From an uncultured Synergistota bacterium (GTDB lineage Bacteria > Synergistota > JAGHAJ01), in the NCBI GenBank assembly GCA_964559865.1, contig CAZLJD010000021.1:57999-121998 (forward strand): DNA of 64,000 nt, given 5' to 3'. Every line of letters begins with the position of its first letter. Within the stretch, counting starts at the first letter, position 1. The position numbers and the translations under genes are program-made. This document shows positions 11,585 through 43,659 of the stretch, one piece after another. The notes beneath the pieces were generated by a model. It saw only the letters and a program-made list of their open reading frames with translations. It was not told the origin of the DNA and did not search any database.

Positions 11585-11690
11585 TGTTTAAGTCTGCCTA
11601 CAAAGTTATCAGATATGAGAGGATACCATCTTAACTTTCCCTATGCTATGCTTAAACTCGGTTGAATTTTCTAAAAAAGGAGGATTTGGC

Positions 11691-14159: not shown

Positions 14160-14234
14160 AGTGGAAGGGGGTGGAAGCAAAAAAAGAGACAACAATAAAT
14201 CACACTAAAAACATTAAAGAAAGGAGGAAAAAGT

Positions 14235-14774: not shown

Positions 14775-14821
14775 ACAGATTATACCTAAATCAGTCTATT
14801 CAAGAAAGGAGGAAAGAAAAC

Positions 14822-16825: not shown

Positions 16826-16843
16826 AAGGGTTGAGGAGAAACC

Positions 16844-18154: not shown

Positions 18155-18178
18155 AAACGCAGAAAGGAGGTAAACAAA

Positions 18179-18784: not shown

Positions 18785-18789
18785 AACTT

Positions 18790-19881: not shown

Positions 19882-19890
19882 AAACAAAAG

Positions 19891-20856: not shown

Positions 20857-20878
20857 TTCTATGAAAGGAGGCACAGCT

Positions 20879-23130: not shown

Positions 23131-23700
23131 ATGGAAGAAAAGATCATAGAGCGTGTGGTCAAGTTCTGTAGACTTCTTCGGAGATACGGTATAAATATTT
23201 CCTATTCTGAGAGTATGGATGCACTGCGAGCTATATCGGAAGTCGGAATTGACAAAGAAGACTTTTACTATGCTCTTAAGTGCACATTGATAAAGGACGA
23301 AGCCAATGCAAAGGTATTTTACGGACTGTTTCAGCTCTTCTTCAATCCACCAAATAAATCCTCCAAAGCCGAATCAGACAGAGGTGATAGCCTAAACGGA
23401 CTCAAAAATAAAGATCTCCTTCAAGGTGAGACAAAGATGGTAGAAAGTGCCCAAGGCGTTGGAACAAATGCAAATGACAACTTAAACAGCTACTTCAAAG
23501 AGCCCATACACATACTACTGGCAAAAGCGGTAAAGTCTGAAGATTACAAGCTGATGCAATTCATAGCACACAAAGCTGTACAAGACCTCGGTGCAATAGA
23601 CCCCCAAAGGGACGATATAAAAACACTCTTAAAGAAAGCAAAGGAAAACATAGGTTGGGACAAAGCAGTAAGCATCTTGTTCGGGCCAAATACCTTTTAA
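23131..23700 (+). CDS. CoxE-like protein, N-terminal domain. Detached from its vWA domain by an in-frame TAA.
   Basis: 189 aa resembling N-terminal regions of VWA_CoxE family proteins. Ends at TAA 23698-23700. The next ORF is in the same frame 12 nt later. Confidence 0.6.
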   Translation: MEEKIIERVVKFCRLLRRYGINISYSESMDALRAISEVGIDKEDFYYALKCTLIKDEANAKVFYGLFQLFFNPPNKSSKAESDRGDSLNGLKNKDLLQGETKMVESAQGVGTNANDNLNSYFKEPIHILLAKAVKSEDYKLMQFIAHKAVQDLGAIDPQRDDIKTLLKKAKENIGWDKAVSILFGPNTF

Positions 23701-25521: not shown

Positions 25522-26259
25522 ATGAGGAGAGTTGTTCCCACAAGATTGAGAAAGGACAAGTACACATTCTCCGCAGAAGAATTGGAAGGTATGTTTTCCG
25601 TACCATCGAAGATGCCAAAATGGGAGCCGATGTACACAGAGCTCACACACAGAGATGGCAGTAAACACCAGGTACTAATCAGAGAGATCAAGAAAGAGGA
25701 GATTGACCCAATGCTTGCATTCATCAAAAGGTACACAGAAATCGACTACGACTACTACGACATAGTTTCTGCAAGGGTATATGCAGAGCTACTTGCCATC
25801 AAAAGAAACAGAATGAAAGACGAATACTTCTTCCTTGCACTGGAAAATGGAAGTCCTGTGGGAATAATAAACGGTAGGATCATGAACAAAGATATAAATA
25901 TAAGCCTCCACACAATGGTATTTAAGAGAAGGATTAACGCTGGTCCAATACTTTTCTACGCAAAGTGCTGGTATGCATTCGAAATCTGTGGTCAACAGGA
26001 ATTTTGGGCAACATTCGAAAGTTACAATGGCTGGAGACTTGCAGGTCTCGGCATGGGACTACCCACCTACAAGTGGCCAGATGTCCAACACGAGCTTGGT
26101 GGCGCTAAGGTTTACTATCTCTCACGTGAGATGTGGGAACTAACAATAAGAGACGAGTATCCAGAGCAGGTAGCAAGGGCAAAACTCATGCCTAATCCTC
26201 CAAAAGAGTTAATCGAAGCAAACGAAAAGCTGATAATTCCAGAAGAAATAGAGGTTTAA
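25522..26259 (+). CDS. Uncharacterized conserved 245-aa protein. Paralog of 40979-41716. Family not recognised.
   Basis: Clear coding periodicity, strong promoter and SD, and an intrinsic terminator downstream. High similarity to the second copy across the YYDIV.ARVYAE...NGR.MN.DINISLHTM.FKR...YAKC.Y.FE...QEFWAT.ESYNG...GLGM..P.Y.WPDVQHELGGA.VYY block. Confidence 0.7.
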   Translation: MRRVVPTRLRKDKYTFSAEELEGMFSVPSKMPKWEPMYTELTHRDGSKHQVLIREIKKEEIDPMLAFIKRYTEIDYDYYDIVSARVYAELLAIKRNRMKDEYFFLALENGSPVGIINGRIMNKDINISLHTMVFKRRINAGPILFYAKCWYAFEICGQQEFWATFESYNGWRLAGLGMGLPTYKWPDVQHELGGAKVYYLSREMWELTIRDEYPEQVARAKLMPNPPKELIEANEKLIIPEEIEV

Positions 26260-26274
26260 ATTAAGATAGTTCAA

Positions 26275-26310
26275 GGGGGAGAAGCTTAAGCTTCTCCCCC
26301 TTTTGTTTTT
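26275..26310 (+). terminator. Rho-independent terminator (possibly bidirectional) between convergent genes
   Basis: GGGGGAGAAGC-TTAA-GCTTCTCCCCC is an 11-bp perfect stem. It is followed by TTTTGTTTTT. Confidence 0.7.
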
Positions 26311-28660
26311 ACTCTACTTCTTTCTTTCCCTGTAGAATGGCAAGCGCTACCTTCTCCGCAGTAACAGGCATAGATTTAATTCTGATACCAAGCGCATCCT
26401 CAACAGCATTTGCAACCATAGGAGCAGCAGGTATCATTGTATGCTCAGATATTCCTCTTGCACCAAACGGGCCGTCAGGTTGCGGAACCTCCACTATTAT
26501 AGGTACTATTTCTTTAGGCACATCCATTGCGGTGGGTATCTTGTAGTCAGTAAAGTTAGGGTTCAATACCTTACCCTTATCATCAAATCTCATATCTTCG
26601 TAGAGCACAGTTGCCAAGCCCTGGAGCAGACCACCGTTTATCTGACCCTTCACAAGATCCGGATTTATCGCTTTACCCGCATCTACAGCTTCCACTGCCT
26701 TCAGAACTCTCATCTTGCCAGTTTCCTTGTCTATTTCAAGCACCACGGCACCAGCACCAACCGTGTAGTGCACATTTGGGTGTCCTCCCTGCGAAGTCTC
26801 CGGATCGTCTACCGTAGTCGTAAACTCCGGCATAAATATACCCCTACCAAGGATAGGTCCACCTCTATACGTACCATCATGCGTCTGAATACCGTTTATA
26901 ACGAAGTCCTTAAGCGGCAGTTGAAATTCTGGATCAGTCTTGCACTTTACCTTCTCGTCCTCAAGGTATAATGTCTCCTTCTCGAGGTGATATGCCTGAT
27001 GCACAACCTCAAATATCTGCTCACGGGCGTCTAAGGCTGCCCTCTTAACTGCATTACCGCAGGACCAAGTAACATGAGAAGCAACTGTCTGCCATTCGTA
27101 TGGATTCCTATCCGTATCAGGTAGCTCAACTCTTATCTTCTCAATGGGCACAGAGAGTATCTCGGCAGCGATCTGTGCCATAACTGTCATATACCCCTGC
27201 CCTATCTCCATACCAGACACTACGATGTTTATACTACCATCTTCGCTGAACTTCAGGAATGCAGCAGAAGATGTATTCGGAGGCATAGCAGGTGCCTTCC
27301 AGAATATGGCAAACCCCTTACCAATAACCTTGTTGGGATCCTTCGATTCCTCTTTCTTGCCCCACTCAACCTCCTTGGCTACCTTATCTATGGCTTCTAT
27401 CAAACCATTTGGATTCATAGGTGCACCATAGGCGACAGGGTCTCCCCTTCTAATGGCATTTTTTCTTCTAAACTCAACAGGGTCCATACCTATCATCTTC
27501 GCTACTCTCGTCATATGGGACTCAATAGCAAAATGGGTTTCAGAATATCCAAAACCTCTATATGGACCCGCCGCCGGCTTGTTTGTATATACGCATATAG
27601 AGTCTATCCAGACATTAGGTATCCTGTAAGGACCAGTTGCAGAGAGACCCGCTGCATTCACAACATTTGCCCCATACTCTGCATACGGACCAGCATCCCA
27701 GTAAAGCTCATTCTTCAAGGCAACGATCGTACCATCTTTCTTAACCCCTACTTTTATCTTTGAAACAAGTGCCTGTCTCATATATGTGTTGTAGAACTCC
27801 TGTGCCCTCGTCCACCTAACTTTCACCGGATGCCCCTTCACAACCGTAGCAAGAGCCACAGCAAGTATCTCCATCGAAACCCCAGCCTTACCCCCAAAAC
27901 CGCCACCAACATACGGGACCACAACTCTGATATCTTTGTGGCTTATACCCAATGGTGCTAACGCCTGTGCAAACAGATTTCTCTGAGTATGGGGTGACTG
28001 TGAGCTGGACCACACCGTAATCCTTCCAGAATAATCATAAAGGGCAACAGATATATGCGGTTCTATACAGCAATGAGCATACCTCGGCACCCTGTAAGTG
28101 TCCTCAAATACAAAGTCTGCCTCGGCAAACGCCTTTTCAACATCACCCTTTCTGACTTTTCTCCAATGTGCAATATTTGTGCCCGGCTTCGGGAAGTACC
28201 ACGGCACATGCCAGTAATTGGCAAGGTCAGGATGTATTATTGGAGCATTATCCTTTAATGCCTCCATCTGATCGAGCACATAAGGAAGCTCCTCATATTC
28301 TACCTTCACCAGTTTCGCTGCCTTCTTAGCAGCCTTTGGATTTCTCGCCAGGACAGCCGCCACCTGTTCACCGATAAACCTAACCCTATCCTGTGCAAAG
28401 ACATATCTATCGTGCATATACAAACCAAACCTATAAGGGAAATCCTTACCAGTAACTACCTTAACTACGCCCGGAACCTTCTCTGCTTCAGATGTGTCTA
28501 TGCTCTTTATCAAGGCATGCGGATAAGGACTCTCCACTATCTCTGCGTAAAGGAGATTAGGACCAAAATCCAAATCATCTACATACCTGGCAGCACCTGT
28601 AACCTTATCTCTTTCGTCAAGCCTCGTAAACGACTTACCCACATATTTAAGCTCTTCCAT
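26309..28660 (-). CDS. Molybdenum hydroxylase large (molybdopterin-binding) subunit, xanthine dehydrogenase/CoxL family
   Basis: 783 aa. Ald_Xan_dh_C-type N-terminus and the GGGFGGK signature (YVGGGFGGKAG). Sits in an M-S-L operon. Confidence 0.85.
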   Translation of the reverse strand: MEELKYVGKSFTRLDERDKVTGAARYVDDLDFGPNLLYAEIVESPYPHALIKSIDTSEAEKVPGVVKVVTGKDFPYRFGLYMHDRYVFAQDRVRFIGEQVAAVLARNPKAAKKAAKLVKVEYEELPYVLDQMEALKDNAPIIHPDLANYWHVPWYFPKPGTNIAHWRKVRKGDVEKAFAEADFVFEDTYRVPRYAHCCIEPHISVALYDYSGRITVWSSSQSPHTQRNLFAQALAPLGISHKDIRVVVPYVGGGFGGKAGVSMEILAVALATVVKGHPVKVRWTRAQEFYNTYMRQALVSKIKVGVKKDGTIVALKNELYWDAGPYAEYGANVVNAAGLSATGPYRIPNVWIDSICVYTNKPAAGPYRGFGYSETHFAIESHMTRVAKMIGMDPVEFRRKNAIRRGDPVAYGAPMNPNGLIEAIDKVAKEVEWGKKEESKDPNKVIGKGFAIFWKAPAMPPNTSSAAFLKFSEDGSINIVVSGMEIGQGYMTVMAQIAAEILSVPIEKIRVELPDTDRNPYEWQTVASHVTWSCGNAVKRAALDAREQIFEVVHQAYHLEKETLYLEDEKVKCKTDPEFQLPLKDFVINGIQTHDGTYRGGPILGRGIFMPEFTTTVDDPETSQGGHPNVHYTVGAGAVVLEIDKETGKMRVLKAVEAVDAGKAINPDLVKGQINGGLLQGLATVLYEDMRFDDKGKVLNPNFTDYKIPTAMDVPKEIVPIIVEVPQPDGPFGARGISEHTMIPAAPMVANAVEDALGIRIKSMPVTAEKVALAILQGKKEVE

Positions 28661-28672
28661 CTCGCTCCCCCC

Positions 28673-29134
28673 TTACTGTTTCTTGGATGCGTCGAGTATC
28701 GCTTCAATTATAGATACATATCCGGTACATCTACACAAATTACCTGCTATAGCCTCTTTTACTTCCTCCTCAGTAGGATGCGGATTCTTCTCCAATAGCT
28801 CTGTAGCGGTAAGTGTCATACCAGGGGCACAAAAACCACACTGGAATGAATTGTGTTCTATGAAAGACTCCTGCAACGGCGTAAGCCCATCCTTGGACAG
28901 CCCTTCAAGCGTCACTATCTCTGCTCCATCTACCTCTATAGCAAATATGAGACAACTCCTAACCGACTTTCCGTTGAGTAAAATAGTACACGCACCGCAG
29001 TCACCTCTACCGCAAGCGTACTTAGGTGTCTTCACACCCAATTTCCCCCTTAAGACTTCAAGGAGAATGTCATTGGGTTCTACCTCTACACTCCTCATTT
29101 CGCCATTCAGTTTGAATGTTATCTTCTTCTTCAT
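28673..29134 (-). CDS. Molybdenum hydroxylase small subunit, 2x[2Fe-2S] (CoxS/XdhC-ferredoxin type)
   Basis: 153 aa. Plant-type cluster CGRGDCGACT plus the second cluster CGFCAPGM...CRCTGY. Confidence 0.85.
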   Translation of the reverse strand: MKKKITFKLNGEMRSVEVEPNDILLEVLRGKLGVKTPKYACGRGDCGACTILLNGKSVRSCLIFAIEVDGAEIVTLEGLSKDGLTPLQESFIEHNSFQCGFCAPGMTLTATELLEKNPHPTEEEVKEAIAGNLCRCTGYVSIIEAILDASKKQ

Positions 29135-29146
29135 GGCATATTCCCC

Positions 29147-30037
29147 CTATATAAGCCTCGTTCCATATTCTGGTCCTTCTCCCTTAAGACGACTTACCGC
29201 AGCTCTCAAAGCTCTCTTTAACATTACTTTAGACATGTGCATTCTATACTCTCTTGTAGCTCTTATATCCGTTATAGGAGATATTTCATCAACCACAGCT
29301 GCCATAGCTTCCTCCATCACACTCTCAGTGAGCTCCTTTCCACTAAGTATTGCCTCTATCTTTCTGGCTCTCACAGGCTTAGGGCCAACTGCACAGAAAG
29401 CAACCCTATACTCATTTCCCTCAATAGCAAGTACACCAACTCCTACCTGTGCGAGATCCTCACCATCGTATCTACCAAGCTTTATGTATGCCCCACCATG
29501 CCTTTTTTCCAAGACAGAGAGAGATACACCAACAACCATCTCTCCCTTTTCCAGAGCCGTCTTCCTTGGGCCAAGAAACCAATCCAGAACAGGGATCTTT
29601 CTCTCACCAGATGGTCCCTTAACTACAACATTAGCCTCATACAACAAAACAGCTGGTCCACTATCCAAAGATGGTACTGCAGAACACATGTTACCCACCA
29701 ATGTAGCCCTATTTCTTATACCCATAGACGCCACACTCTTGGAAGCCTCCCAAAGCACAGGGAAATTTTTCCTAACTACTTCAGAGTCTATCAGCTCATT
29801 AAAGGTAACGAGGGCACCCACAAAGAGGTGCCCATCTTTAAATTCAAACCTTTTAAGTTCCTCTATTCCCTTTATATCAACCACTGCTTTGGGGGTTTCA
29901 AATCCGTCCTTAACACGGACCACAAGGTCTGTTCCACCTGCAAGTACTGCCGCATCCTTTCCGTAATCCGAAAGTAGCTTAACGACTTCGTCCACGCTTC
30001 CAGGCTTAAAATACTCAAACTCATGCACTATAGCCAT
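29147..30037 (-). CDS. Molybdenum hydroxylase FAD-binding medium subunit (CoxM/XdhB type)
   Basis: 296 aa. FAD_binding_5 with an AGGTDL motif. CO-dehydrogenase-flavoprotein C-terminal domain. Confidence 0.85.
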   Translation of the reverse strand: MAIVHEFEYFKPGSVDEVVKLLSDYGKDAAVLAGGTDLVVRVKDGFETPKAVVDIKGIEELKRFEFKDGHLFVGALVTFNELIDSEVVRKNFPVLWEASKSVASMGIRNRATLVGNMCSAVPSLDSGPAVLLYEANVVVKGPSGERKIPVLDWFLGPRKTALEKGEMVVGVSLSVLEKRHGGAYIKLGRYDGEDLAQVGVGVLAIEGNEYRVAFCAVGPKPVRARKIEAILSGKELTESVMEEAMAAVVDEISPITDIRATREYRMHMSKVMLKRALRAAVSRLKGEGPEYGTRLI

Positions 30038-31711: not shown

Positions 31712-32959
31712 TTACTCAATATTGTACTTCTCTGCAAAAGCCTCAAGGGCCTTCTCAAAAACCTCCATAGGAGCATCCACCAAACCCGCACCTACTTGTC
31801 CAACTCCCGGCTTCTTGTGTGCAACACCGGTGTCGATAAACGGAGGTATTCCCTTTTCCACTACCTTTACTATATCTATACCTGTTGGTGTGCCTCTAAA
31901 GTCCAGGAAAGGTATCTGGTAAACATTGTTCTCCCCAATAGTTATCTCATACATAGCAAGGGTCTTTTCGACGGATTCCTTGACGGTACCACCCACAAAC
32001 TGTATTATAGCCGGTGCCGCTGCTATTGCAAAACCTCCAAGACCAGCTGTCTCCATTATTGCACTGTCACCAATGTCAGGGTTAACATCCTCCTTTGTAA
32101 ATCCAGGGAACAACAGGACATCTGGTACAGGTGCCGGCGCCGTAAACCACTGATCACCAAGTCCCGAAACCTGAATACCAAAATCTGTCCCATTCCTAGC
32201 CATAACTGTTACCATAGTACTGCCTTCTATATTCTTTGCAGGATCGAGACTCACCTTCGCACTCGTCATAGCAAAACCAAGAAATGTATGTATATTCTCC
32301 TCCATAAATCTCATAACCTCATTGGTTTCATGGTGGTCCTTCATCGTCTCTGCCATAGCACCAGCAATCTTAGCAAAGAGCACATAAGATGCTGCTCTAC
32401 TCCTATTGTGTAACTCATCTCCCATATGCAACGCCTGTGCTATTATATTCTTGAGGTCAAGTTTTCCTATTTTTCTTATAGCCCTCTGCCACACCGGGAA
32501 CATGACATTTTCAAGCCACTTCAATCTCTCAATGACATCGGGTGAATAGGCACCCATTCTCAAGACCTTACCTATACCTTCGTTAAGCGTCTGGTAAGCT
32601 CTATTGCCGTGAGCCTCATTTTCGGTGATTATTACTGGCATCGAAGCCGATACTATGCCAGCCATTGGCCCTACTGTATTGTGATGATGACAAGGAGAAA
32701 ACTCTATCTCTCCAGATGCAGCCAGCTCCTCTGCCTCTTCGGGGGTCTTTGCAAGTCCTTCATACATCAGAGCACCTATAACCGCTCCTCTCTGTGGCCC
32801 ACACATTCTATCCCATGTAATAGGAGGTCCTGCGTGCAGAATGAGATTTTTCTTCATCCCGGGGATAACATCTATAGCCTTCCCCATATCCACCCACATC
32901 GGCTTAGCCTCTAACAAGATCTTCAATGCCTTCTCATTCGCCTTCTCGATATCAACCAT
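31712..32959 (-). CDS. ylbE: DUF1116 protein, YlbE homolog (putative oxamate-carbamoyltransferase subunit)
   Basis: 415 aa. Blocks LHAGPPITWDRMCGPQRGAVIGA, PCHHHNTVGPMAGIVSASMPV and DGNRAYQTLNEGIGKVLRMGAY match, as far as I recall, the conserved blocks of E. coli YlbE. Confidence 0.75.
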   Translation of the reverse strand: MVDIEKANEKALKILLEAKPMWVDMGKAIDVIPGMKKNLILHAGPPITWDRMCGPQRGAVIGALMYEGLAKTPEEAEELAASGEIEFSPCHHHNTVGPMAGIVSASMPVIITENEAHGNRAYQTLNEGIGKVLRMGAYSPDVIERLKWLENVMFPVWQRAIRKIGKLDLKNIIAQALHMGDELHNRSRAASYVLFAKIAGAMAETMKDHHETNEVMRFMEENIHTFLGFAMTSAKVSLDPAKNIEGSTMVTVMARNGTDFGIQVSGLGDQWFTAPAPVPDVLLFPGFTKEDVNPDIGDSAIMETAGLGGFAIAAAPAIIQFVGGTVKESVEKTLAMYEITIGENNVYQIPFLDFRGTPTGIDIVKVVEKGIPPFIDTGVAHKKPGVGQVGAGLVDAPMEVFEKALEAFAEKYNIE

Positions 32960-32993
32960 TGCTCTGCCTCCTTACTAAAATTGTTTTATTCAA

Positions 32994-33019
32994 TTGTTGA
33001 AATTAATAATTTTTAACAA
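32994..33019. promoter_or_regulatory. Imperfect 26-bp palindrome (TTGTTGAAATTAATAATTTTTAACAA) in the divergent ylbE/permease control region
   Basis: Seen directly in the sequence. Shares the TTGTTGAAAT half-site with the palindrome at 25430. Confidence 0.35.
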
Positions 33020-33404
33020 AATTATTTCACCCCTCAGTTACCACCTCCTTTCAAGCTACAATATACCATAGCAGTTGAATTTTTTCAAGTTTTCCAATAT
33101 ACAAATATTTACAAAGTTGCAGGCTTTCAAAACTTACCGTTTGTGTAATCTTCTAAATTTATAAGACAAAATCAATGACCTAAGCCTGCAGAATGTCAGT
33201 AAAATACTACAAAAACTCAATCTTCTCTTTCTTACTCATAAACTTGACAAAAGCAGCAGTTGTGATATACTTTCGAGCAGTTAATGAAGTGTTACACTTC
33301 TTCAAATTGGGGGGTGGTAGCGAAAGAAAGCTATCAAGTGTTTGAAGCATACTGAAAAGTGATCTACGGTTTAGGTAATCACTTTGAGGAGGGGAGGTTA
33401 CAGT

Positions 33405-34940
33405 ATGGCAGAGCAAACAACTATGCAAAAGGGTTGGGTTATATACCCAATAGGAAGCAGGCCTAAAATGGCATTGTCCTTCTTCCTTGGATTACAGCAC
33501 TATCTTACCATGTTCGGCGCAACCGTTAGTATACCATTGATACTCAGCGGTGCCATGAAGATGCCACCTCAGGAAACAGCACTCTTAATTTCCACCATAT
33601 TTCTGGCAAGCGGTATAGCAACACTCTTACAGCAGTACATAGGTAACAGACTACCTATAGTTCAAGGTGGGAGCTTTTCGTTTCTTGGCCCGGCATTCGC
33701 CATCATTGCATTGGTAGGTCAGCACGGCGGAAACTGGCAAAACATGATACAAACCGTATCCACAGCAATACTGTTTGGCTCATTCTTTGAAATTATACTT
33801 GGTTATAGTGGTTTGATGGGACAGATCAAAAAGGTCATAGGTCCAATAACGATAGCACCAACAATTACAATGATAGGACTCTCTCTGTTTGGGGTAGGTG
33901 CCCCATTCATGGCAGGAAACTGGACAATATCGGTCATCACCTTAATAGCACTAATACTCTACTCGCAGGTCTTCGCAAGAAAGTCGAGGGTATTTCTATT
34001 GTTCCCAGTTCTTCTGGCTATACTTACGGGTTGGATACTCTCTCTGATAGGAACGCTTACAGGCATAATTCCTCCTGGAAACCCTGCAAACCTTGCAAAA
34101 GGACTCCAACTAATACACAACTCTCCTTGGTTCTGGATAAGGCCAATCATACCATTCAAGTGGGGATTTCCACCCATTGACTCTGTAGTAACAGCAGGGG
34201 CAATAGGTACATTGGCAGGATACATAGCATCAATGGTGGAATCCATCGGAGACTATCACTCCTGCGCAAGGATAGCTGAAGGGCCTGTACCCACAGCAAG
34301 GATGATATCAAAAGGACTTGGGGCTGAGGGTGTTGGCTGTCTCGTAGCAGGTATTCTGCAGACCGGCAATGGAACCACATCTTACACCGAGAATATCGGT
34401 GCAATTGGTATCACGAGGGTAGCATCCAGGCGAGTGATAAAAGCAGGTGCAACTATAGCCATTGTAATACCATTCTTTGCAAAGTTTGGTGCGATCCTGG
34501 CCACACTACCGCAACCTGTCGTGGGCGCAATGTATGTGGGACTATTCGGCTTGATTGCAGCAGTCGGGTTATCCAACCTTCAGTTCGTCAACCTGAACAA
34601 CTCGAGGAATCTGTTTATACTTGGTCTGGCACTCTTCAGCGGTCTCACATTCCCAGCATACTTCAACGCCCACCCAATACATTGGGGTGCTCCCGGGACA
34701 CTAACAGGGACTCTCGGAGATATAGCTCAGACTATACTAACAACCGGCATGGCAGTATCAGCCTTTATCGCAATGGCTCTGGACAACTGGCTGCCTGGTG
34801 CAACACGAGAGGAAAGAGGCCTCGCAGTTTGGGAGAGAGAAGCAACAGAAGAGGCATGGATCGAAGCAGAGAAAGAGTGGGCAAAGATGAAAGTTGGGGA
34901 AGAGAGAAAATTAGAAGGATTCGAAGGCTCACAAAGTTAG
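33405..34940 (+). CDS. NCS2-family nucleobase:cation symporter (xanthine/uracil/urate permease type)
   Basis: 511 aa from ATG 33405 (GGAGGGGAGG SD). About 12 TM helices. NCS2-like N-terminus LGLQHYLTMFGATVSIPL. Confidence 0.8.
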   Translation: MAEQTTMQKGWVIYPIGSRPKMALSFFLGLQHYLTMFGATVSIPLILSGAMKMPPQETALLISTIFLASGIATLLQQYIGNRLPIVQGGSFSFLGPAFAIIALVGQHGGNWQNMIQTVSTAILFGSFFEIILGYSGLMGQIKKVIGPITIAPTITMIGLSLFGVGAPFMAGNWTISVITLIALILYSQVFARKSRVFLLFPVLLAILTGWILSLIGTLTGIIPPGNPANLAKGLQLIHNSPWFWIRPIIPFKWGFPPIDSVVTAGAIGTLAGYIASMVESIGDYHSCARIAEGPVPTARMISKGLGAEGVGCLVAGILQTGNGTTSYTENIGAIGITRVASRRVIKAGATIAIVIPFFAKFGAILATLPQPVVGAMYVGLFGLIAAVGLSNLQFVNLNNSRNLFILGLALFSGLTFPAYFNAHPIHWGAPGTLTGTLGDIAQTILTTGMAVSAFIAMALDNWLPGATREERGLAVWEREATEEAWIEAEKEWAKMKVGEERKLEGFEGSQS

Positions 34941-35022
34941 CATATTATGTAATAAAGTTACCTATAGAAGGGGGCTCTCAAAAAAAAGGGGTCCCCTTCT
35001 ACTTTGTGAGGAGTATATCAAA

Positions 35023-35406
35023 ATGTGGCAAAAGGTCAAAAAAGTTGTCTGGTGGAGTTTCATAGCTATATATGTAGCGATTACCATATACCTCCTGTAC
35101 AATGTGGGAAATCCAAATTCTCTTTTAAGGTACTTCATAAAGGATACTTCTTATGACCTATACATAACATTTGCGTTTGCGTTCTCCATGTCGCTGATCA
35201 GCTTCTTTACCTCCCTTACAAAGGAAAACAGAGAATATAAAGAGCTCATAGAGAATAACATAGAATACATAAGGGAGCTAAGAAAGAAGAAGTGGACAGA
35301 CGAACAGATCGCAGAGTCTATCCTACAAGCACTCGGAAGCAGGGAAGGTTTCCACCACAGATACGCAAGAAAAAAACTTATGCTATTCCTATCAAGGGTA
35401 AAATAA
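35023..35406 (+). CDS. Hypothetical membrane protein
   Basis: 127 aa with two predicted TM helices. No recognisable family. Confidence 0.4.
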   Translation: MWQKVKKVVWWSFIAIYVAITIYLLYNVGNPNSLLRYFIKDTSYDLYITFAFAFSMSLISFFTSLTKENREYKELIENNIEYIRELRKKKWTDEQIAESILQALGSREGFHHRYARKKLMLFLSRVK

Positions 35407-35414
35407 GGTGAATC

Positions 35415-35873
35415 ATGGATATAAACCAGCTAATTCTTGGAGGCATTCTAATAGGAGGAATGCTATTCTTTTACTGGTTTAAACAAAATGACAGAAAAAA
35501 AATTCTCTCCATGTTTCCCGCAAGAGAGATTGTGGCATACACACACGGTGTAACCTGTTTTGGTTTAGCATCTGAGCCTGGAGGCATAAAAGAGTCTTCA
35601 GGGAGCATACTCTTGTTGAAGGATAGAATATTCTACAAAGATAGGTTTGGTAAAAGGGAGATATTCATACCAAAAGAAAACCTTTTATCCATCGTGGTCA
35701 CAGACAATCACAAAGGTGAACCAACATACCAGAAATGCTTAGCCTTTTATTTCAAGGACGATTATGATAGAATAGAAAGGGTTGCCTTTATCATTCCACA
35801 TCCAAAACAGTGGGTAGAGATTGTAAAACGCACCTTCCAGAAGGAGATCCCGATAAAAGAGGAACTGTGGTGA
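35415..35873 (+). CDS. Hypothetical protein with N-terminal TM anchor
   Basis: 152 aa. No recognisable family. Confidence 0.4.
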   Translation: MDINQLILGGILIGGMLFFYWFKQNDRKKILSMFPAREIVAYTHGVTCFGLASEPGGIKESSGSILLLKDRIFYKDRFGKREIFIPKENLLSIVVTDNHKGEPTYQKCLAFYFKDDYDRIERVAFIIPHPKQWVEIVKRTFQKEIPIKEELW

Positions 35874-35879
35874 AGGAGA

Positions 35880-36242
35880 GTGAGAAAAGTGCATATCACT
35901 ATTATAGTTTACCATCACCCCTACTCGTACGAAGACATGGACACAGCGATAAATATCATAAAAGCACTAAGAGAAGAAAACCATAAGTGCACACTCATGC
36001 TGTTCATGGACGCCGTTACAGCCACAAATAGGGAGATAAAACCACCAAAATACGACAGAAACATAGCAGAAAAGCTACAAAACCTTATAGATAAAGATGT
36101 AAAAGTCATAGTCTGCGGCTCATGTACGCTCTACAGGGGAGTCAGTAAAGCAGAACTTTTGGAGAATGTATCCCTGGGCGGACTTTCAACGCTGGGAGAG
36201 GTCATCAAACACAGCGATAGAGTGATAAACATAGGATGGTGA
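35880..36242 (+). CDS. DsrE/TusD-like sulfur-relay protein
   Basis: 120 aa DsrE/DsrF-like fold (HITIIVYHHPYSYEDMDTAINIIKA...VIVCGSC). First gene of a DsrEFH-like trio. Confidence 0.65.
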   Translation: MRKVHITIIVYHHPYSYEDMDTAINIIKALREENHKCTLMLFMDAVTATNREIKPPKYDRNIAEKLQNLIDKDVKVIVCGSCTLYRGVSKAELLENVSLGGLSTLGEVIKHSDRVINIGW

Positions 36243-36243
36243 G

Positions 36244-36618
36244 GTGAGGAGATTGGAAGAAAAAACCATAACCATAGTATCCAGACACAGCCCTATGGGA
36301 ACATCTACCGTGCACGAGGCATTTAGAGCCAGTATTGGGTGCAGTAGCGAAAACAAGCACATAAACTTAGTATTAGCAGAAGATAGCGTCTTTGCTCTGT
36401 TAAAACCAATAAAGGGAAAAAACCCCATAGATATACCCTCTCTGGAAAGGTACTTCTTGAGTCTTCAGGAATTCGGGATAAATCTCCTGATCCATAAACC
36501 ATCCTTCAAAGAGAGAATCAACCCAGAAAAAGACGAGCTTCTCCCATACGGAAAGTTTATCTCCGACAAAGAGCTAACCCAACTGATAAGAAAAAGCGAC
36601 ACAATCCTTTTATTCTAA
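36244..36618 (+). CDS. DsrF/TusC-like protein
   Basis: 124 aa. Middle gene of the DsrEFH-like trio. Confidence 0.55.
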   Translation: MRRLEEKTITIVSRHSPMGTSTVHEAFRASIGCSSENKHINLVLAEDSVFALLKPIKGKNPIDIPSLERYFLSLQEFGINLLIHKPSFKERINPEKDELLPYGKFISDKELTQLIRKSDTILLF

Positions 36619-36633
36619 CGGGAGGGAAAGACA

Positions 36634-36933
36634 ATGGAAACCCTTTTCATACTGAAGGCATCACCATACACTAACAGCTACAGTGTAATACTCAACTCTG
36701 TTCTACCAGGTGATAGCATCGTCCTAATCCAAGACGCCGTGGTAGGCGCAAAGGCTGCACCGGTAGACTTCAAAGAAAAGATAAAGAAGTTGAGAGAAAA
36801 AGAGATACCTACATATGTGTTAAAAGAAGACCTACTTCTAAGAAACATCCAAAACATAGAAGGAGGATTCAAGGAAATCACATACAAGGAATTGGCAAAG
36901 CTCATAGTAGAGCACAAAAGGGTAGTATCATAG
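36634..36933 (+). CDS. DsrH/TusB-like protein
   Basis: 99 aa. METLFILKASPYTNSY...GDSIVLIQDAV is typical of DsrH/TusB. Confidence 0.6.
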   Translation: METLFILKASPYTNSYSVILNSVLPGDSIVLIQDAVVGAKAAPVDFKEKIKKLREKEIPTYVLKEDLLLRNIQNIEGGFKEITYKELAKLIVEHKRVVS

Positions 36934-36952
36934 AAGCAGCAGGAGGATAGCC

Positions 36953-37369
36953 ATGCGGATTAGCGTGTACGATCCACAACGGTGTATAGGGTGTGGAAGC
37001 TGTATGTTTGCATGTGCAAGGAGAGCAGGAGATGGAGGGCTAAGCAATACTGCCATAGCGGTAAGGTCATCTGGAGGGATAAGCAAAGGGTTTAGTGTTA
37101 TTGTATGCAGGGCGTGTACAGACCCTCCCTGTTCAAAGGTGTGTCCCACAAATGCACTGATCCCCAGAAAGGGTGGAGGTGTGATCCTCAATCCTACAAA
37201 GTGTATCGGATGTGAAAACTGCCGAGAAGCATGCCCTATCGGAGCAGTCTTCTGGAACGAGGAGATAAACAAACCCGTAATATGCGTGCAGTGTGGATAC
37301 TGTGTGGAGTTTTGCCCTCATGGAGTACTAAAAATGGAAGATAGTGGGGTGGCTGCACATGTTGGATGA
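36953..37369 (+). CDS. Ferredoxin-like [4Fe-4S] electron-transfer subunit paired with the second AOR
   Basis: 138 aa with CIGCGSCMFAC, CRAC...C, CIGCENCREACP and CVQCGYCVEFCP motifs. Overlaps the AOR start. Confidence 0.8.
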   Translation: MRISVYDPQRCIGCGSCMFACARRAGDGGLSNTAIAVRSSGGISKGFSVIVCRACTDPPCSKVCPTNALIPRKGGGVILNPTKCIGCENCREACPIGAVFWNEEINKPVICVQCGYCVEFCPHGVLKMEDSGVAAHVG

Positions 37370-39122
37370 CAACAGATTATCAAAGGTACTGTATATAGAC
37401 CTAACCAAGAAAAGTTATTGGGTCAGAGATAGAATAGACCTATTTTCCAAGTATATAGGAGGAACTGGAGTAGGTATAAAGTTGCTCCAAGAAGAATGTC
37501 CAAAGGAAACAGATCCACTAGGAAAGGACAATCCCATCATATTTGCAGTAGGCCCATTGACAGGGTTATTCCCTCTTGCTTCAAAGACAGTAGCAATGTT
37601 TAAATCACCGCACACAGGCAACTTAGGTGAAAGCCACTCTGGGGGAAGGAGTGCCATAGCAATAAAGATGGCAGGGTATGGCGCTATCGTAATAAAGGGA
37701 AAAAGTGACATCCCGGTATACCTTGCAATTCACGGAGACCATGTCTACTTCAGAGACGCATCTGCATTATGGGGGATGAAAAGCTGTTTCACAGTCGGTA
37801 GGATTATTAGAGAGAACGAACCTGGAGCTGGGTTGAGAACAATCATGAGAATAGGCAAAGCAGGGGAAAACCTCGTAAGCTACGCAAGTGTCACCACAGA
37901 AACGTTCAGACACTTCGGGAGGTTGGGACTTGGAGCTGTATTCGGCAGTAAAAAGCTGAAGGGAATCATAATCTCAGGAAAGAGGAGCATAAAAGTACAG
38001 GACAAAAAAACCTACAAGGAGCTATACTCTGAAATATACAAAGCTGCAGTGGATTCTCCACTCATGAAAAAGTACCACGATCTCGGCACACCCGAAAACA
38101 TTCTAAAATTAAACGAAATGGGAGGACTACCTACAAGGAACCTCCAAAAAGGACATTTCGAGTTTGCAGAAAATATATCAGGTGAAAACTTCGCAGAACA
38201 TTATCTCGGCAGAAGACTTGCCTGTTTCCACTGTCCAGTTGGGTGTATACACTTAGCCGCATTAAGGGAACCATACGAAGACGAGCCGTACTTCTATAAA
38301 ACATCCATGATCTCCTACGACTACGAACCTATCTTTGCGCTTGCGACAATGCTCGGTATATCAGAGCCTGAAGGCTTTTTAAAGCTGATGGATAGCGTGG
38401 AGAAGTACTGCATAGATGCAATGAGCACCGGTGTAGTGCTTGCATGGGCAACCGAAGCCCAAGAGAAGGGAATCATCACGGAAAAGGAGACTAACGGCTT
38501 AAATCTCAAGTGGGGAGACTATAAGACCTACATACAGGCATTGAGCTTCATAGTGGAACAGCCAAACACATTTTACAAAGCGCTGTCAAAAGGGGTAGAA
38601 CATGCTTCATCTATTTACGGCGGTAAAGAATTTGCAATGGCATTTGGCGGCAATGAAATGCCAGGCTATCACACAGGACCAGGAGCGCACCTGGGATTCC
38701 TAACAGGTGCAAGGCATAGTCACCTTGACAGTGCCGGCTACAGCATAGACGAAAAGATACTGCCAAAAACCAGCTTATCAGCTGAAGAACTTGGCAGGAG
38801 ACTCTTAGAGGAAGAAAGGTGGCGTCAGATACTTTCAAGCCTTGTGATATGCTTCTTTGCGCGGGGCATATATTCGCCACAAATAACTACCAACGCCTTG
38901 AAGATTGCAGGGTTCAGCTTCTCAGAAGAAGACCTAAAAGAGACCGGAAAGGTTATACACGCAGAAAAATACAGGTTCAAAGAACAAGAAGGGTTTTCCC
39001 TGAAGAATATCCGCATACCCCAGAGGATATTCCAAACACCGTCCGCAGTAGGTAATATAGAAAAAGCATATATAGAAAGGGCTCTCAATTACATAAACTC
39101 AGAGATATCGTCAGCCATTTAA
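37359..39122 (+). CDS. Second tungsten AOR-family oxidoreductase catalytic subunit
   Basis: About 587 aa from ATG 37359 (GGGGTGG SD, overlapping the ferredoxin stop). AOR_N-like N-terminus (YIDLTKKSYWVRDRIDLFSKYIGGTGVGIKLL) and AOR C-terminal domains. Confidence 0.8.
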   Translation: MLDDNRLSKVLYIDLTKKSYWVRDRIDLFSKYIGGTGVGIKLLQEECPKETDPLGKDNPIIFAVGPLTGLFPLASKTVAMFKSPHTGNLGESHSGGRSAIAIKMAGYGAIVIKGKSDIPVYLAIHGDHVYFRDASALWGMKSCFTVGRIIRENEPGAGLRTIMRIGKAGENLVSYASVTTETFRHFGRLGLGAVFGSKKLKGIIISGKRSIKVQDKKTYKELYSEIYKAAVDSPLMKKYHDLGTPENILKLNEMGGLPTRNLQKGHFEFAENISGENFAEHYLGRRLACFHCPVGCIHLAALREPYEDEPYFYKTSMISYDYEPIFALATMLGISEPEGFLKLMDSVEKYCIDAMSTGVVLAWATEAQEKGIITEKETNGLNLKWGDYKTYIQALSFIVEQPNTFYKALSKGVEHASSIYGGKEFAMAFGGNEMPGYHTGPGAHLGFLTGARHSHLDSAGYSIDEKILPKTSLSAEELGRRLLEEERWRQILSSLVICFFARGIYSPQITTNALKIAGFSFSEEDLKETGKVIHAEKYRFKEQEGFSLKNIRIPQRIFQTPSAVGNIEKAYIERALNYINSEISSAI

Positions 39123-39881
39123 GTCTTTACCGTACTTAACGGCAACTATCTCGGACATTATGCTGAGTGCTATCTCCTCTGGTCTTCTACCACCAATAGG
39201 TAAACCCGCAGGAGAGTGTACTCTTTTTAGTGCCTCTTCACTGAAACCATCTTTCAAAAGATGAGAGTAGATTGTTTGCCTCTTCTGGTCACTTGCAACC
39301 ATAGCGATGTAAGCAAACTCTTTGCCGAGTAACCCTCTGAGAACATCCTCATCAAACTTATGTGCAAAGGTGTTCACAACAACATAGGATGACAAATCTG
39401 GTTTCAGCTCTCTGGCAGCAGTATAAAACTCCTTCACAATTATCTCTTTCGCATCCGGGAATCTATCCTTATTGGCATAATCAGGTCTACTATCCACAAC
39501 AACAACATCAAAACCAACCAAAAAAGCCATTTTAGAGAGGTACCTTCCTATATGCCCCGCCCCAAATATCACCACCCTATCTTTAACCTTCACAGGGTCT
39601 ATAAACACATCTACATCTCCACCACAACCCTCTCCACCAGCTGACAATCGGTACTGTTTTAGTTCTGCTTTACCCTTCTCTATAACTTCCAATGCATCTC
39701 TTTTAACAAGCTCTTCCAACGTTCCCCCACCTATCGTGCCAGAGGTTCTACCGTCTATAGCAACAAGCATCTTTGCACCAGGCTCACGGGGAGAAGAACC
39801 ATAAGAAGCAACTACGGTAGCCACAGCAAACGCAACCCTGTTTTCCCAGAACTCCTGCATACGATGTAGAAGCTCTATCAT
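39111..39881 (-). CDS. XdhC/CoxI-family molybdenum cofactor insertion chaperone
   Basis: 256 aa. XdhC_CoxI N-domain (ASYGSSPREPGAKMLV) plus the Rossmann-like XdhC_C domain (VVIFGAGHIGRYL). Confidence 0.75.
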   Translation of the reverse strand: MIELLHRMQEFWENRVAFAVATVVASYGSSPREPGAKMLVAIDGRTSGTIGGGTLEELVKRDALEVIEKGKAELKQYRLSAGGEGCGGDVDVFIDPVKVKDRVVIFGAGHIGRYLSKMAFLVGFDVVVVDSRPDYANKDRFPDAKEIIVKEFYTAARELKPDLSSYVVVNTFAHKFDEDVLRGLLGKEFAYIAMVASDQKRQTIYSHLLKDGFSEEALKRVHSPAGLPIGGRRPEEIALSIMSEIVAVKYGKDLNG

Positions 39882-39885
39882 TCAG

Positions 39886-40914
39886 CTACCACCCCTTCCC
39901 TAACATACAATAAGGATAATTACAAACATCACAATGTCTACAAAATCCACCATGCCCCAGCCTCGCAATATCCTCATAGGTAATTATATCTCCTGCAAGA
40001 AGTCTTGGCAATATCACATCAAAGACTGTAATCTTGTAGAAAACACCTGCCGCAGGTATCCCAACAATGGGCACTTCACCCTTATATGCCAAAAGCAACA
40101 TAGAACCCGGCAACACAGGGGAACCATAGCGTATAATCTCTGCACCAGCAGAAGCTATACCACGAGGAGTAACATCATCTGCATCTACCGACATCCCCCC
40201 TGTACACACAACGATCTCTGCCCCCACAGATAAAAACTCCTGTATGGAAGATCTCACCATATCCTCATCATCTGGCACAATTCTGCTACCAATAAGCTCT
40301 GCACCATAATCTTCGACTTTGCTTTTCACAATATCCTTGAACCTATCCTTTATCCTACCCGTATATATCTCCGTGCCAGTCGTAACAAGTGCAACCTTTT
40401 TTTTCACATAAGGTTTCACCTTAACTACATATCTATACTTGGAGGCAACACTCTCAAATAAATTGACATATTCCTTTCTTAGGACAAGAGGAATAGCTCT
40501 AAAACCCGCTATCTTGTCACCCTTCTTTACAGGCGTATTGTTGTGAATTGTAGATACAGAAAACTCCCCTATCATGTTTAATTCAAATACTGCTTCCGCA
40601 TTCACCTTAACCAAACCGTCCACACCGGCTACAAGAGTAATCTTACCTTCAACAGGACCCTCAGAAGAGACATTTTCTCCTTTCATCCACTTCTCCATCA
40701 CATATGCAACATCATTCTCGTGCATCTCATCTGGGGATATTTCAAGCACATATATGTAATTTTTGCCTATATCCTTCAAAAGAGGTATATCCTCTTTTCT
40801 TATCACATGCCCCTTGCGAAAACCGGGACCTTTGTACTCTCCCGGAACAATCTTTGTCAAATCATAAGGTATCGTCATTCCCACCGCATCTTCAACCTTC
40901 ACTCGCTTGAGCAC
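39886..40914 (-). CDS. MoeA/MogA-like molybdopterin-binding (MoCF biosynthesis domain) protein with C-terminal Cys cluster
   Basis: 342 aa. TGGMSVDADD-type motif of MoeA domain 3. C-terminal CRHCDVCNYPYC. Confidence 0.6.
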   Translation of the reverse strand: MLKRVKVEDAVGMTIPYDLTKIVPGEYKGPGFRKGHVIRKEDIPLLKDIGKNYIYVLEISPDEMHENDVAYVMEKWMKGENVSSEGPVEGKITLVAGVDGLVKVNAEAVFELNMIGEFSVSTIHNNTPVKKGDKIAGFRAIPLVLRKEYVNLFESVASKYRYVVKVKPYVKKKVALVTTGTEIYTGRIKDRFKDIVKSKVEDYGAELIGSRIVPDDEDMVRSSIQEFLSVGAEIVVCTGGMSVDADDVTPRGIASAGAEIIRYGSPVLPGSMLLLAYKGEVPIVGIPAAGVFYKITVFDVILPRLLAGDIITYEDIARLGHGGFCRHCDVCNYPYCMLGKGW

Positions 40915-40978: not shown

Positions 40979-41716
40979 CTAAACGGTTACCTCATCGGGT
41001 ATAATGAGCTTCTCATTCTTCTTGAGGAGTTCCTCCGGTACGGGTCTCTGGAGTTTTGCACCTATATACCCCTCAAGGTAATCTTTCACAGTACTCTTCC
41101 AGTACTTGTAGTCCACATAGTACACACGGGCACCACCAAGCTCGTGCTGGACATCCGGCCAACGATAAGACGGTTGCGCCATTCCAAGCCCCCATCTCTT
41201 AAAACCATTGTAACTCTCGTATGTAGCCCAGAACTCCTTCTGATTGAGCGTCTCAAATGTATAATCACACTTTGCATAGTACATAGTTGCACCCACTCTG
41301 AAGCCTCTCTTAAATGCCATGGTATGCAAACTAATGTTTATATCTTCATTCATCAACCTACCATTCGCAAAACCTATCAGTTTACCATCTTCAAGTCCCA
41401 ACAACACATAAGGGTCTTTAAGCCTATTCCTGTACCAACCCAATATCTCCGCATATACCCTCGCTCCAACTATGTCATAAAAGTCATGGTCCACATCCAA
41501 GAAGTTACGCAAATACTTTAAAAGAAGGGGTGCTTCTTCTTTCTTAGCAGGCCTTATTACCATTGTTATTTTATCTCCGGCCTTGTTTTTCAGCTCCACC
41601 ATTGCAGGTTCAAACGGTGGGATATCCATAGATGGACCACTCAATATGGGTTCAATCTCCCTGATATTCAATCTAACTTCTTCATAACTTGACTTCTCCG
41701 GTGGTTCTTTCCACAT
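40979..41716 (-). CDS. Uncharacterized conserved 245-aa protein. Paralog of 25522-26259.
   Basis: Same length and conserved blocks as the first copy. SD and ATG are tightly spaced after the carbamate kinase gene. Confidence 0.7.
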   Translation of the reverse strand: MWKEPPEKSSYEEVRLNIREIEPILSGPSMDIPPFEPAMVELKNKAGDKITMVIRPAKKEEAPLLLKYLRNFLDVDHDFYDIVGARVYAEILGWYRNRLKDPYVLLGLEDGKLIGFANGRLMNEDINISLHTMAFKRGFRVGATMYYAKCDYTFETLNQKEFWATYESYNGFKRWGLGMAQPSYRWPDVQHELGGARVYYVDYKYWKSTVKDYLEGYIGAKLQRPVPEELLKKNEKLIIPDEVTV

Positions 41717-43470: not shown

Positions 43471-43659
43471 TCACTTTTTCTTAAGCTTTGAAAGTATAGA
43501 AATCAACTTCTTGTTACCACCTGCTGGAGGCCTCCAATTAACATGGACTGCCTTGTATCCCTTTCCCTTGAGTGTATCATAGAAACTCTTCAAACCCACA
43601 TTGACTACCACTAAATCCTGACCAAACAACTCGTTTATCTTTTCGTTCACCTTCGCCAT
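43471..43659 (-). CDS. Detached C-terminal segment of the FdrA-like protein
   Basis: 62 aa. LVVVNVGLKSFYDTLKGKGYKAVHVNWRPPAGGNKKL resembles, from memory, the extreme C-terminus of E. coli FdrA. It is in the same frame as fdrA, 12 nt after its TAA stop. An SD (AAGGGGGG) overlaps that stop. Confidence 0.55.
   Translation of the reverse strand: MAKVNEKINELFGQDLVVVNVGLKSFYDTLKGKGYKAVHVNWRPPAGGNKKLISILSKLKKK

Follow-up and report, generated by a model that had tools for sequence, protein, structure and literature searches.

We examined a stretch of 64,000 nucleotides (hereafter the window) from an uncultured Synergistota bacterium (GenBank assembly GCA_964559865.1, contig CAZLJD010000021.1, positions 57,999 to 121,998 of the forward strand), in which three small genes resembling dsrE, dsrF and dsrH are located directly upstream of genes encoding a ferredoxin and a predicted tungsten enzyme of the AOR family. 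According to the explanation that we prefer, and to which we assign a probability of roughly one half, the trio is a divergent DsrEFH-type persulfide carrier that was recruited locally into a purine-catabolic island rich in molybdenum and tungsten enzymes, and it has no conserved partnership with the AOR. The ferredoxin-AOR pair normally occurs without a DsrE-family gene, which argues that its adjacency to the trio reflects lineage-specific recruitment and not a conserved sulfur-relay/tungsten-enzyme system.

Identity and active site of the trio

The first-pass annotation of the sequence had assigned the three genes to the DsrE, DsrF and DsrH folds, and the matches to subunit models agree with this. 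The products correspond to the TusD, TusC and TusB models, respectively, and the genes follow one another on the plus strand (Table 1) in the canonical order E(D)-F(C)-H(B). The DsrE-like protein matched Pfam DsrE with 88.1 bits (E 6e-25), with TusD/DsrE as its top NCBIfam model. The DsrF-like protein reached 30.6 bits with Pfam DsrE/F (cut-off 22.7) and matched TIGR03010 (TusC/DsrF) over its full length (E 5.5e-8), and a DsrF profile made from relatives gave 126 bits on it; when it was compared with solved structures by sequence search, no significant match was obtained. The DsrH-like protein matched Pfam DsrH with 56 bits and TIGR03011 (TusB/DsrH) with 63.5 bits against a cut-off of 49.2, and it aligned with E. 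coli TusB/YheL (2d1p_C). The subunit profiles also cross-matched one another, as is expected of paralogous subunits.

A catalytic cysteine of the TusD type, for which the first-pass annotation had suggested an alignment, is indeed present. The DsrE-like protein contains the motif IVCGSC, the first cysteine of which (Cys79 of the 120-amino-acid open reading frame (ORF), Cys76 of the 117-amino-acid product) falls in the alignment at the position of Cys78 in both A. vinosum DsrE (2hy5_A) and E. coli TusD (2d1p_A) and is the putative persulfide carrier. Among 24 relatives this residue shows at least 90% conservation, and the sister species described below keeps it. The DsrH-like protein contains no cysteine at all, as is the case for TusB and for T. 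maritima TM0979, and unlike DsrH of sulfur oxidisers. Judging from these sequence features, we regard the three genes as encoding a genuine DsrE-DsrF-DsrH (TusD-C-B-like) sulfur-carrier complex, a predicted divergent member of its superfamily.

By the same kind of evidence, the trio fails the orthologue tests for both TusBCD and type I DsrEFH. With E. coli TusBCD (YheN/M/L; 2D1P) it shares the fold family, the gene order, the position of Cys78 and a passed threshold of the domain-level model TIGR03011, but its scores fall below the equivalog cut-offs for TusD (48.6 against 89.25), TusC (32.8 against 94.15) and TusB in NF010035 (44.8 against 104), and in comparison with the PDB the DsrE-like protein scores higher with YchN (46 bits) than with TusD (15 bits). 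As in type I DsrEFH of A. vinosum (2HY5), three E-, F- and H-type genes are adjacent and DsrE possesses the equivalent of Cys78; however, the cysteine-free DsrH-like protein has no equivalent of the conserved DsrH cysteine, Cys20 in A. vinosum, and neither dsrAB, dsrC nor other dsr genes were found among the ORFs of the window. DsrEFH type II, known from cable bacteria and sulfate reducers, co-occurs with yeeE, tusA and reductive dsrAB (PMC13293266), none of which is present in the window. That no TusA, TusE or MnmA partner was visible had already been remarked in the first-pass annotation, and this was borne out: searches of the 64 kb with a TusA profile and for YeeE gave no match at E<=10, the C-terminal motif of the DsrC/TusE type was not found in the same 64 kb, and no MnmA-type domain occurred among the annotated ORFs.

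Relatives and origin of the trio

The trio is strongly diverged. When 1.84 billion representative proteins were searched exhaustively with the DsrE-like sequence using HMMER, 122 relatives were detected at E<=1e-3 (a word-indexed search with DsrE returned only 2 proteins), and the best relatives outside the lineage were 42-44% identical. With a five-sequence alignment, 40 metagenome loci containing DsrE relatives (25-49% identity) were retrieved. Neighbouring genes in these and the other fetched loci were identified by a crude ORF caller followed by hidden Markov model searches. A Sulf_transp/YeeE gene, encoding a membrane protein of the YeeE/YedE type, was present beside the trio in 30 of the 40 loci and TusA in 27; a pyridine-nucleotide-disulfide oxidoreductase was detected in 15, and a fusion of an ArsR-type helix-turn-helix domain with TusA was often present too. 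Clustering of the neighbours outlined a conserved module composed of TusA, YeeE, DsrE, DsrF, DsrH, the ArsR-TusA fusion and the flavoprotein. No AOR, AOR-type ferredoxin, XdhC or MoeA-like gene was found at any of the 40 loci.

The DsrH from one module locus gave a full-length match of 92 bits to T. maritima TM0979 (1RHX), which ties the module to the yeeE cluster of T. maritima and to the YeeE-TusA-DsrE clusters. In T. maritima, yeeE belongs to one transcription unit with dsrE and tusA homologues, and its expression rises 42-fold in response to thiosulfate (PMC9431562); YeeE-TusA-DsrE clusters have been discussed alongside 'DsrEFH type II' (PMC13293266). The TM0979-type trio (1RHX, 1X9A) and the 'YTD' clusters are the nearest relatives that we found. 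Like them, the trio of the window consists of adjacent DsrE, DsrF and DsrH genes in the same order, with the DsrE cysteine in a CxxC context and a DsrH without cysteine (as in loci L037 and L053 and in TM0979). It differs from the 'YTD' clusters in having no TusA, YeeE/Sulf_transp, ArsR-TusA fusion or flavoprotein disulfide reductase beside it, being flanked instead by orf127 and orf152 on one side and by the ferredoxin-AOR (WorS-WorL) pair on the other. These likenesses place the ancestry of the trio in the TusA/YeeE-linked clade, although here it stands without TusA or YeeE within the window.

The closest DsrE relative outside the lineage (P0123, 42% identical) carries an N-terminal TusA-like extension, i.e. 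it is a natural TusA-DsrE fusion. It is not an orthologue of YedF, as it scored 27.6 bits with TIGR03527 against a cut-off of 110. The window DsrE scored 22.6 bits with the same model. This weak match, together with an E. faecalis-like island (PMC2432076), had prompted the idea of a selenium/YedF link, which was rejected on these scores; SelD, YqeB and YqeC gave no matches among the window ORFs.

Conservation in sister species

The sister set comprised L076-L078 (GCA_053938165.1, GCA_053995295.1 and one Logan run) and the fragments L074 and L075. The sister species keeps all eight genes of the block to which the trio belongs (nucleobase permease, orf127, orf152, dsrE, dsrF, dsrH, ferredoxin and AOR) in the same order, with the XdhC and MoeA-like genes converging on it. 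Over the dsrE-aor segment, nucleotide identity between the window and the sister species is 78% and synonymous sites are saturated, while the proteins are 85-93% identical (DsrF 93%), with ratios of nonsynonymous to synonymous substitution rates (dN/dS) between 0.02 and 0.06 for all genes that allowed an estimate of dS (0.019 for DsrH). For DsrE and DsrF, dS was too saturated for an estimate, dN being 0.074 and 0.038, respectively. Further upstream, the permease is 97%, orf127 88% (dN/dS 0.03) and orf152 87% identical (dN/dS 0.06). With such low ratios the genes of the block are not chance ORFs; the trio consists of genuine genes that selection maintains.

Both orf127 and orf152, directly 5' of dsrE, are under purifying selection and were found in no other fetched locus. 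The former is confined to the lineage, and the latter lies upstream of dsrE in L075 too.

As for the synteny of dsrEFH with ferredoxin and AOR, conservation in other genomes, which would have tied the trio to the AOR more generally, did not materialise. The arrangement occurs in a single genus-level lineage, made up of the window species and the sister species or strains (L074-L078), and in none of 31 other loci of the AOR clade.

The ferredoxin-AOR pair

The AOR matched AFOR_N with 228 bits and AFOR_C with 217 bits, and its small subunit matched the small subunits 9mqx_E and 8c0z_C of AOR complexes. Under the class definitions of a 2026 classification (PMC13328260), the pair would be a Class II WOR (WorL with WorS): the AFOR domains, the four cysteines and the second-shell residues are present, a four-cluster WorS is adjacent, and no flavin adenine dinucleotide (FAD) subunit follows the AOR, since XdhC converges there. 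Like the characterised Class II WORs (P. furiosus ASOR and WOR5, C. bescii GOR), it combines AFOR_N and AFOR_C, one [4Fe-4S] cluster and a Thr/Tyr/Glu/His set with a four-cluster small subunit, to which AorA of the Aromatoleum AOR is comparable as well. Its sequence nevertheless assigns WorL to a separate clade without a characterised member; among solved structures its best match is only about 222 bits (9mqx_D, 1aor), and WOR5 gave 182 bits.

Members of this clade are proteins of about 585 amino acids (more than 6,000 matches), which keep about 70% identity throughout Bacteria and Archaea, and were found in Synergistota, Chloroflexota, Caldatribacteriota, Deferribacterota, Methanosarcinales and others. 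In an alignment of 120 members (P0003-P0122), 176 of 587 columns were essentially invariant, including the four [4Fe-4S] cysteines Cys289, Cys292, Cys296 and Cys498. The second-shell residues Thr244, Tyr322, Glu323 and His455, which align to Thr243, Tyr312, Glu313 and His448 of P. furiosus AOR, were 93-100% conserved, and the active site thus looks like the ordinary aldehyde-oxidising type. An extra cysteine (Cys47 of the 587-amino-acid AOR), absent from P. furiosus AOR, is 97% conserved in the clade.

Outside the lineage, we inspected 31 loci of the AOR clade (369 kb), namely 25 from species-representative genomes, one from Deferribacter autotrophicus and five that carry the three closest homologues (71% identity). 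The DsrE, DsrF and DsrH profiles, which gave 120-160 bits on the window genes, detected nothing at E<=1 at these loci. The ferredoxin adjoined the AOR at every clade locus whose upstream sequence was present, and the surroundings otherwise varied. The commonest neighbours were a major facilitator superfamily transporter and a metallo-beta-lactamase-fold protein, mostly in Caldiserica; a universal extra neighbour beyond the ferredoxin was looked for and discarded, as none was universal. The ferredoxin-AOR pair is a self-sufficient two-gene unit, normally without a DsrE-family neighbour. Its variable contexts suggest that the two genes have often been transferred horizontally as a unit.

With the trio at none of the 31 AOR-clade loci and an AOR at none of the 40 loci of trio relatives, the pairing of sulfur-relay genes with an AOR is as unusual as the first-pass annotation had held. 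It had also considered that the trio could turn out to be a generic tRNA-thiolation TusBCD set, placed at random in relatives, with a synteny found in this genome alone. As to the synteny, this comes close, for it is essentially restricted to one lineage; as to the trio, it does not hold, because most of the relatives sit in TusA-YeeE modules and the TusD and TusC cut-offs were missed.

Organization of the locus

The block runs on the plus strand from 33.4 to 39.1 kb (Table 1). From dsrE to the ferredoxin gene, successive genes are separated by 1, 15 and 19 bp, and ferredoxin and AOR genes overlap by 11 bp, so that the trio does stand directly upstream of the ferredoxin and of the second AOR of the window (the first is located at 14822-16825), as initially annotated. 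A Shine-Dalgarno-like motif precedes every gene from dsrE to the AOR, and no terminator-like site was detected on the plus strand from dsrE through to the 3' end of aor. The eight tightly packed co-directional genes form a candidate single operon starting at the permease. The number of promoter-like sites in our scan equalled the expectation from shuffled sequence; the site listed in Table 1 was the best of them and is a consensus match only. At the other end of the block, the 3' ends of AOR and XdhC overlap by 12 bp (39111-39122; 4 bp in the sister L076), which leaves no space for a terminator between both operons. Rfam gave no match at the gathering threshold in the window and none at E<=1 in 32900-36000, and control by a riboswitch or other RNA was dropped from consideration on account of these empty scans.

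Table 1. Genes and other features of the block and of the neighbouring island (positions in the window; aa, amino acids)
Feature	Position	Strand	Evidence and remarks
Xanthine-dehydrogenase-family enzyme, Mo + 2Fe-2S + FAD subunits	26309-30037	-	best model XdhA, 555 bits, below equivalog cut-off
Candidate operon promoter, sigma-70-like	33244-33271	+	TTGACA-16-TATACT with TG extension; 11/12 consensus matches; 5' of permease
Nucleobase permease (xanthine/uracil family, NCS2)	33405-34940	+	Pfam Xan_ur_permease 254 bits; NCBIfam pbuX/NCS2; first in block
orf127, small protein with hydrophobic stretches, no family	35023-35406	+	no significant Pfam/NCBIfam match
orf152, hydrophobic N-terminus, no family	35415-35873	+	no Pfam/NCBIfam match; stops 6-15 bp 5' of dsrE
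DsrE/TusD-like protein, 117 aa from GTG at 35889	35889-36242 (120-aa ORF from 35880)	+	Pfam DsrE
DsrF/TusC-like protein, 124 aa, start position uncertain	36244-36618	+	Pfam DsrE/F; TIGR03010
DsrH/TusB-like protein, 99 aa, no Cys	36634-36933	+	Pfam DsrH; TIGR03011
WorS/AorA-type small subunit (ferredoxin), 138 aa	36953-37369	+	16 Cys; four CxxCxxCxxxC-type motifs; four [4Fe-4S]
WorL/AorB-type AOR catalytic subunit, predicted tungstopterin enzyme, 587 aa	37359-39122 (ORF from 37344)	+	AFOR_N, AFOR_C
XdhC-family molybdenum cofactor (Moco) chaperone	39111-39881	-	Pfam XdhC_CoxI + XdhC_C; last gene of convergent catabolic operon
MoeA-like molybdopterin-binding protein	39886-40914	-	MoCF_biosynth domain only; Cys-rich C-terminus

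The purine island, XdhC and the MoeA-like gene

The block is surrounded by a purine/oxalurate-type catabolic island that spans 22235-47688. On the plus strand at 22.2-25.4 kb, genes for a CoxD-like AAA protein, a CoxE-like VWA protein and MobB are found. Upstream of the permease, the minus strand (26.3-33.0 kb) encodes AllG, a double cyclase and the FAD, 2Fe-2S and Mo subunits of an enzyme of the xanthine-dehydrogenase (XDH) family, and a further run on the minus strand (39.1-47.7 kb) comprises XdhC, the MoeA-like gene, a 245-amino-acid protein, carbamate kinase, a cyclase-family hydrolase, AllF (FdrA-like), AllH and a PucR-family regulator. The island is thus built around a molybdenum hydroxylase, and the XDH-family enzyme is the most plausible client of XdhC there.

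Some observations on individual island genes may be added. Three cyclase-family hydrolase genes are present, one of them with a tandem double domain, and AllF, AllG and AllH are oxamate carbamoyltransferase subunits by Pfam naming. No confident family was found for the genes at 40979-41716, 25522-26259 and 43471-43659 (no match) and at 23131-23700 (weak NCBIfam match only). The first of these encodes the 245-amino-acid protein, which is 94% identical in the sister species.

The first-pass annotation had taken the XdhC and MoeA-like genes as support for a cofactor-maturation neighbourhood. It is right that genes for the maturation of pterin cofactors abound here, but the evidence ties them to the Mo hydroxylase and not to the AOR. 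Homologues of the MoeA-like protein (about 50% identity) occur in Gottschalkia purinilytica, Thermohalobacter berrensis and Clostridium formicaceticum, in each case beside XDH-family subunits, YqeC and MocA-like genes. XdhC is present in two of these three contexts (L079 of G. purinilytica and L080 of T. berrensis), and in G. purinilytica a gene of the Aminotran_5 family (cysteine-desulfurase type) follows directly after it; no AOR and no DsrE-family gene was seen in any of the three. Since the MoeA-like homologues sit in XDH maturation sets, they point to maturation of a molybdenum hydroxylase and not of a tungsten AOR. The sets of purinolytic Clostridia resemble the window in that MoeA-like and XdhC homologues share a purine-catabolic island with an XDH-family enzyme. 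The window differs from them in that YqeC and MocA-like genes are missing, as is an adjacent gene of the Aminotran_5 family (none was found among the ORFs), and in that the DsrEFH-like trio lies nearby instead (0/3 there).

The C-terminus of the MoeA-like protein is rich in cysteine (CRHCDVCNYPYC). The protein belongs to a widespread family of 'molybdopterin-binding proteins', the members of which are found in Clostridia beside XDH-family enzymes, together with YqeC and MocA-like genes and in many cases XdhC. For the XdhC of the window, the best NCBIfam model was 'XdhC family aldehyde oxidoreductase maturation factor' (247 bits against a cut-off of 350), a name that does not specify which AOR family is meant. 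A role of XdhC as a maturation factor for the tungsten AOR was rejected: an XdhC-like AorE in the Aromatoleum AOR operon would have supported it, but according to the paper on this operon both AorD and AorE resemble MoaD.

Proposed role of the trio and alternative explanations

If the trio is a locally recruited persulfide carrier, as we favour, its three proteins would assemble like DsrEFH/TusBCD, an unlinked donor would load sulfane sulfur onto the CGSC cysteine of the DsrE-like subunit in persulfide form, and the persulfide would be passed to an acceptor within the purine island. The candidate acceptors can be ranked by inference only. XdhC-bound Moco would come foremost, tentatively; it would be followed by the AOR, either its tungsten cofactor or one of its substrates, which we think unlikely, and then by general handling of sulfane sulfur with no relation to these two. 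XdhC-bound Moco is favoured because XDH-family enzymes require a terminal sulfido ligand, because CoxD, CoxE and XdhC are present, and because no cysteine-desulfurase-type gene was found in the window at the place where one reference cluster carries such a gene.

Several points weigh against local recruitment without an AOR partnership. The packing of trio and AOR is kept in two species between which synonymous sites are saturated, and such conservation across diverged species is some evidence for a functional tie between the two. The sample of AOR loci is redundant, with several Cryosericum/Caldiserica genomes, and stems from a narrow peptide-pattern scan; the scan that yielded the 25 genome loci did not recover the source lineage itself. 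Neither a sulfur donor (TusA, rhodanese or cysteine desulfurase) nor an acceptor was identified within the window, and the negative result for TusA and YeeE applies to these 64 kb.

Two other explanations would give the trio a definite client. It could feed persulfide to the XdhC-bound Moco of the XDH-family enzyme, alongside the CoxD/CoxE-type factors, and so would replace the Aminotran_5-family gene that may act next to XdhC in G. purinilytica; we hold this to be possible but well short of probable. In Rhodobacter capsulatus, Moco is bound by XdhC, which brings in a cysteine desulfurase for the sulfuration step. The island encodes not only the XDH-family enzyme but CoxD, CoxE, MobB, XdhC and the MoeA-like protein as well, the operon of the trio converges on XdhC up to overlap and begins with a nucleobase permease, a PucR-family regulator belongs to the same island, and the gene following XdhC in G. 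purinilytica has no counterpart in the window. However, DsrE relatives were never found near XdhC or XDH (0/40 loci) and DsrE-family genes never in the XDH accessory sets (0/3), while in the window itself the trio lies on the strand opposite to XdhC, about 6 kb from the XDH genes. In the literature that we searched, the only paper with both DsrE and XdhC deals with a SirA-like protein linked to selenium, whose C-terminal domain distantly resembles DsrE; the window shows no selenium markers. Alternatively, as the first-pass annotation had considered, the trio might be a relay dedicated to the AOR, either supplying the tungsten cofactor of WorL with a sulfido or thiolate ligand or handling a sulfur-containing substrate or product. 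Beyond its packing with worS and worL in two diverged species, this is favoured by earlier cases of sulfur chemistry linked to WORs: aliphatic sulfonates are substrates of the Class II enzyme PfASOR, and a gene for the sulfurtransferase FdhD lies downstream of the Class V CsWOR41 operon and was suggested to be necessary for activity (PMC13328260). Nevertheless we consider it unlikely. At the 31 other loci the clade has its ferredoxin and never a DsrE-family gene, from which it follows that the enzyme of this clade matures and works without one. Its second shell is the ordinary aldehyde-oxidising set (93-100% in 120 members), the relatives of the trio are not found next to an AOR (0/40), and the word 'sulfido' is absent from a 2025 review of tungsten enzymes.

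The remaining explanations leave the trio without a function in the island. General cytoplasmic handling of sulfane sulfur or thiosulfate of the Thermotoga type, with the trio merely hitch-hiking, would agree with nearest relatives in TusA-YeeE modules and with the thiosulfate response of yeeE in T. maritima. We find this a little less likely still than a relay for the AOR, as the window contains no YeeE or TusA, the trio is strongly diverged from the Thermotoga-type clade (<=45% identity) and the gaps of 1-19 bp to genes of the island are conserved in two species. A TusBCD orthologue serving tRNA 2-thiouridine (mnm5s2U34) formation, placed here by chance, is highly improbable. Even though the top NCBIfam models are TusD, TusC and TusB and the TIGR03011 threshold is passed, the scores for TusD, TusC and NF010035 TusB lie far under the equivalog cut-offs, TusA and TusE are missing from the window, and the nearest relatives are TusA-YeeE-linked trios with a TM0979-like DsrH and not the gammaproteobacterial Tus proteins. 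The failed cut-offs and the affinity to the TusA/YeeE-linked clade together make tRNA thiolation unlikely.

Other features of the window

The first AOR of the window (14822-16825) is accompanied by a ferredoxin of the four-cluster type (14235-14774) and an FAD/NAD oxidoreductase (16844-18154), which is the AorABC or Class III arrangement (PMC13328260), and it comes directly after a glycyl-radical enzyme (11643-14159). On its 3' side, a GPR1/YaaH-type transporter, a DUF6282 protein, a radical-SAM activase (19891-20856) and a DHODH-like Fe-S protein were found. The whole region (11643-22168) may represent a glycyl-radical pathway yielding an aldehyde. Throughout the window, GC skew tracks the coding strand strongly, with about -0.3 over genes of the minus strand and +0.05 to +0.15 over those of the plus strand, indicating marked purine loading of mRNAs.

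Conclusions

The arrangement described here was unreported in the literature that we searched, but it is narrow and may be a juxtaposition of genes, not a system. A survey of about 4,000 WOR neighbourhoods mentions no DsrE-family neighbours in its main text and in the available text of its supplement (PMC13328260). Two cautions can be drawn for the reading of such loci, namely that even a striking operon adjacency can be specific to one lineage, and that nearby 'cofactor' genes can belong to another enzyme family than the one credited with them. The ferredoxin-AOR clade, on the other hand, is very widespread and highly conserved (about 70% across Bacteria and Archaea), and it has no characterised member.

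We can also speculate, as a rather doubtful proposition, that the DsrEFH-type complex would act as a dedicated persulfide donor, providing the sulfido ligand for XdhC-bound Moco and/or a sulfur ligand for the tungsten cofactor of the WOR. If this were true, it would be the first relay of the DsrEFH family for sulfuration of a molybdenum or tungsten cofactor, beyond tRNA thiolation and dissimilatory sulfur metabolism. It would put a name to the missing sulfur donor for sulfuration of the XdhC/CoxD type in anaerobes, and DsrEFH relays would have a third job in the cell.

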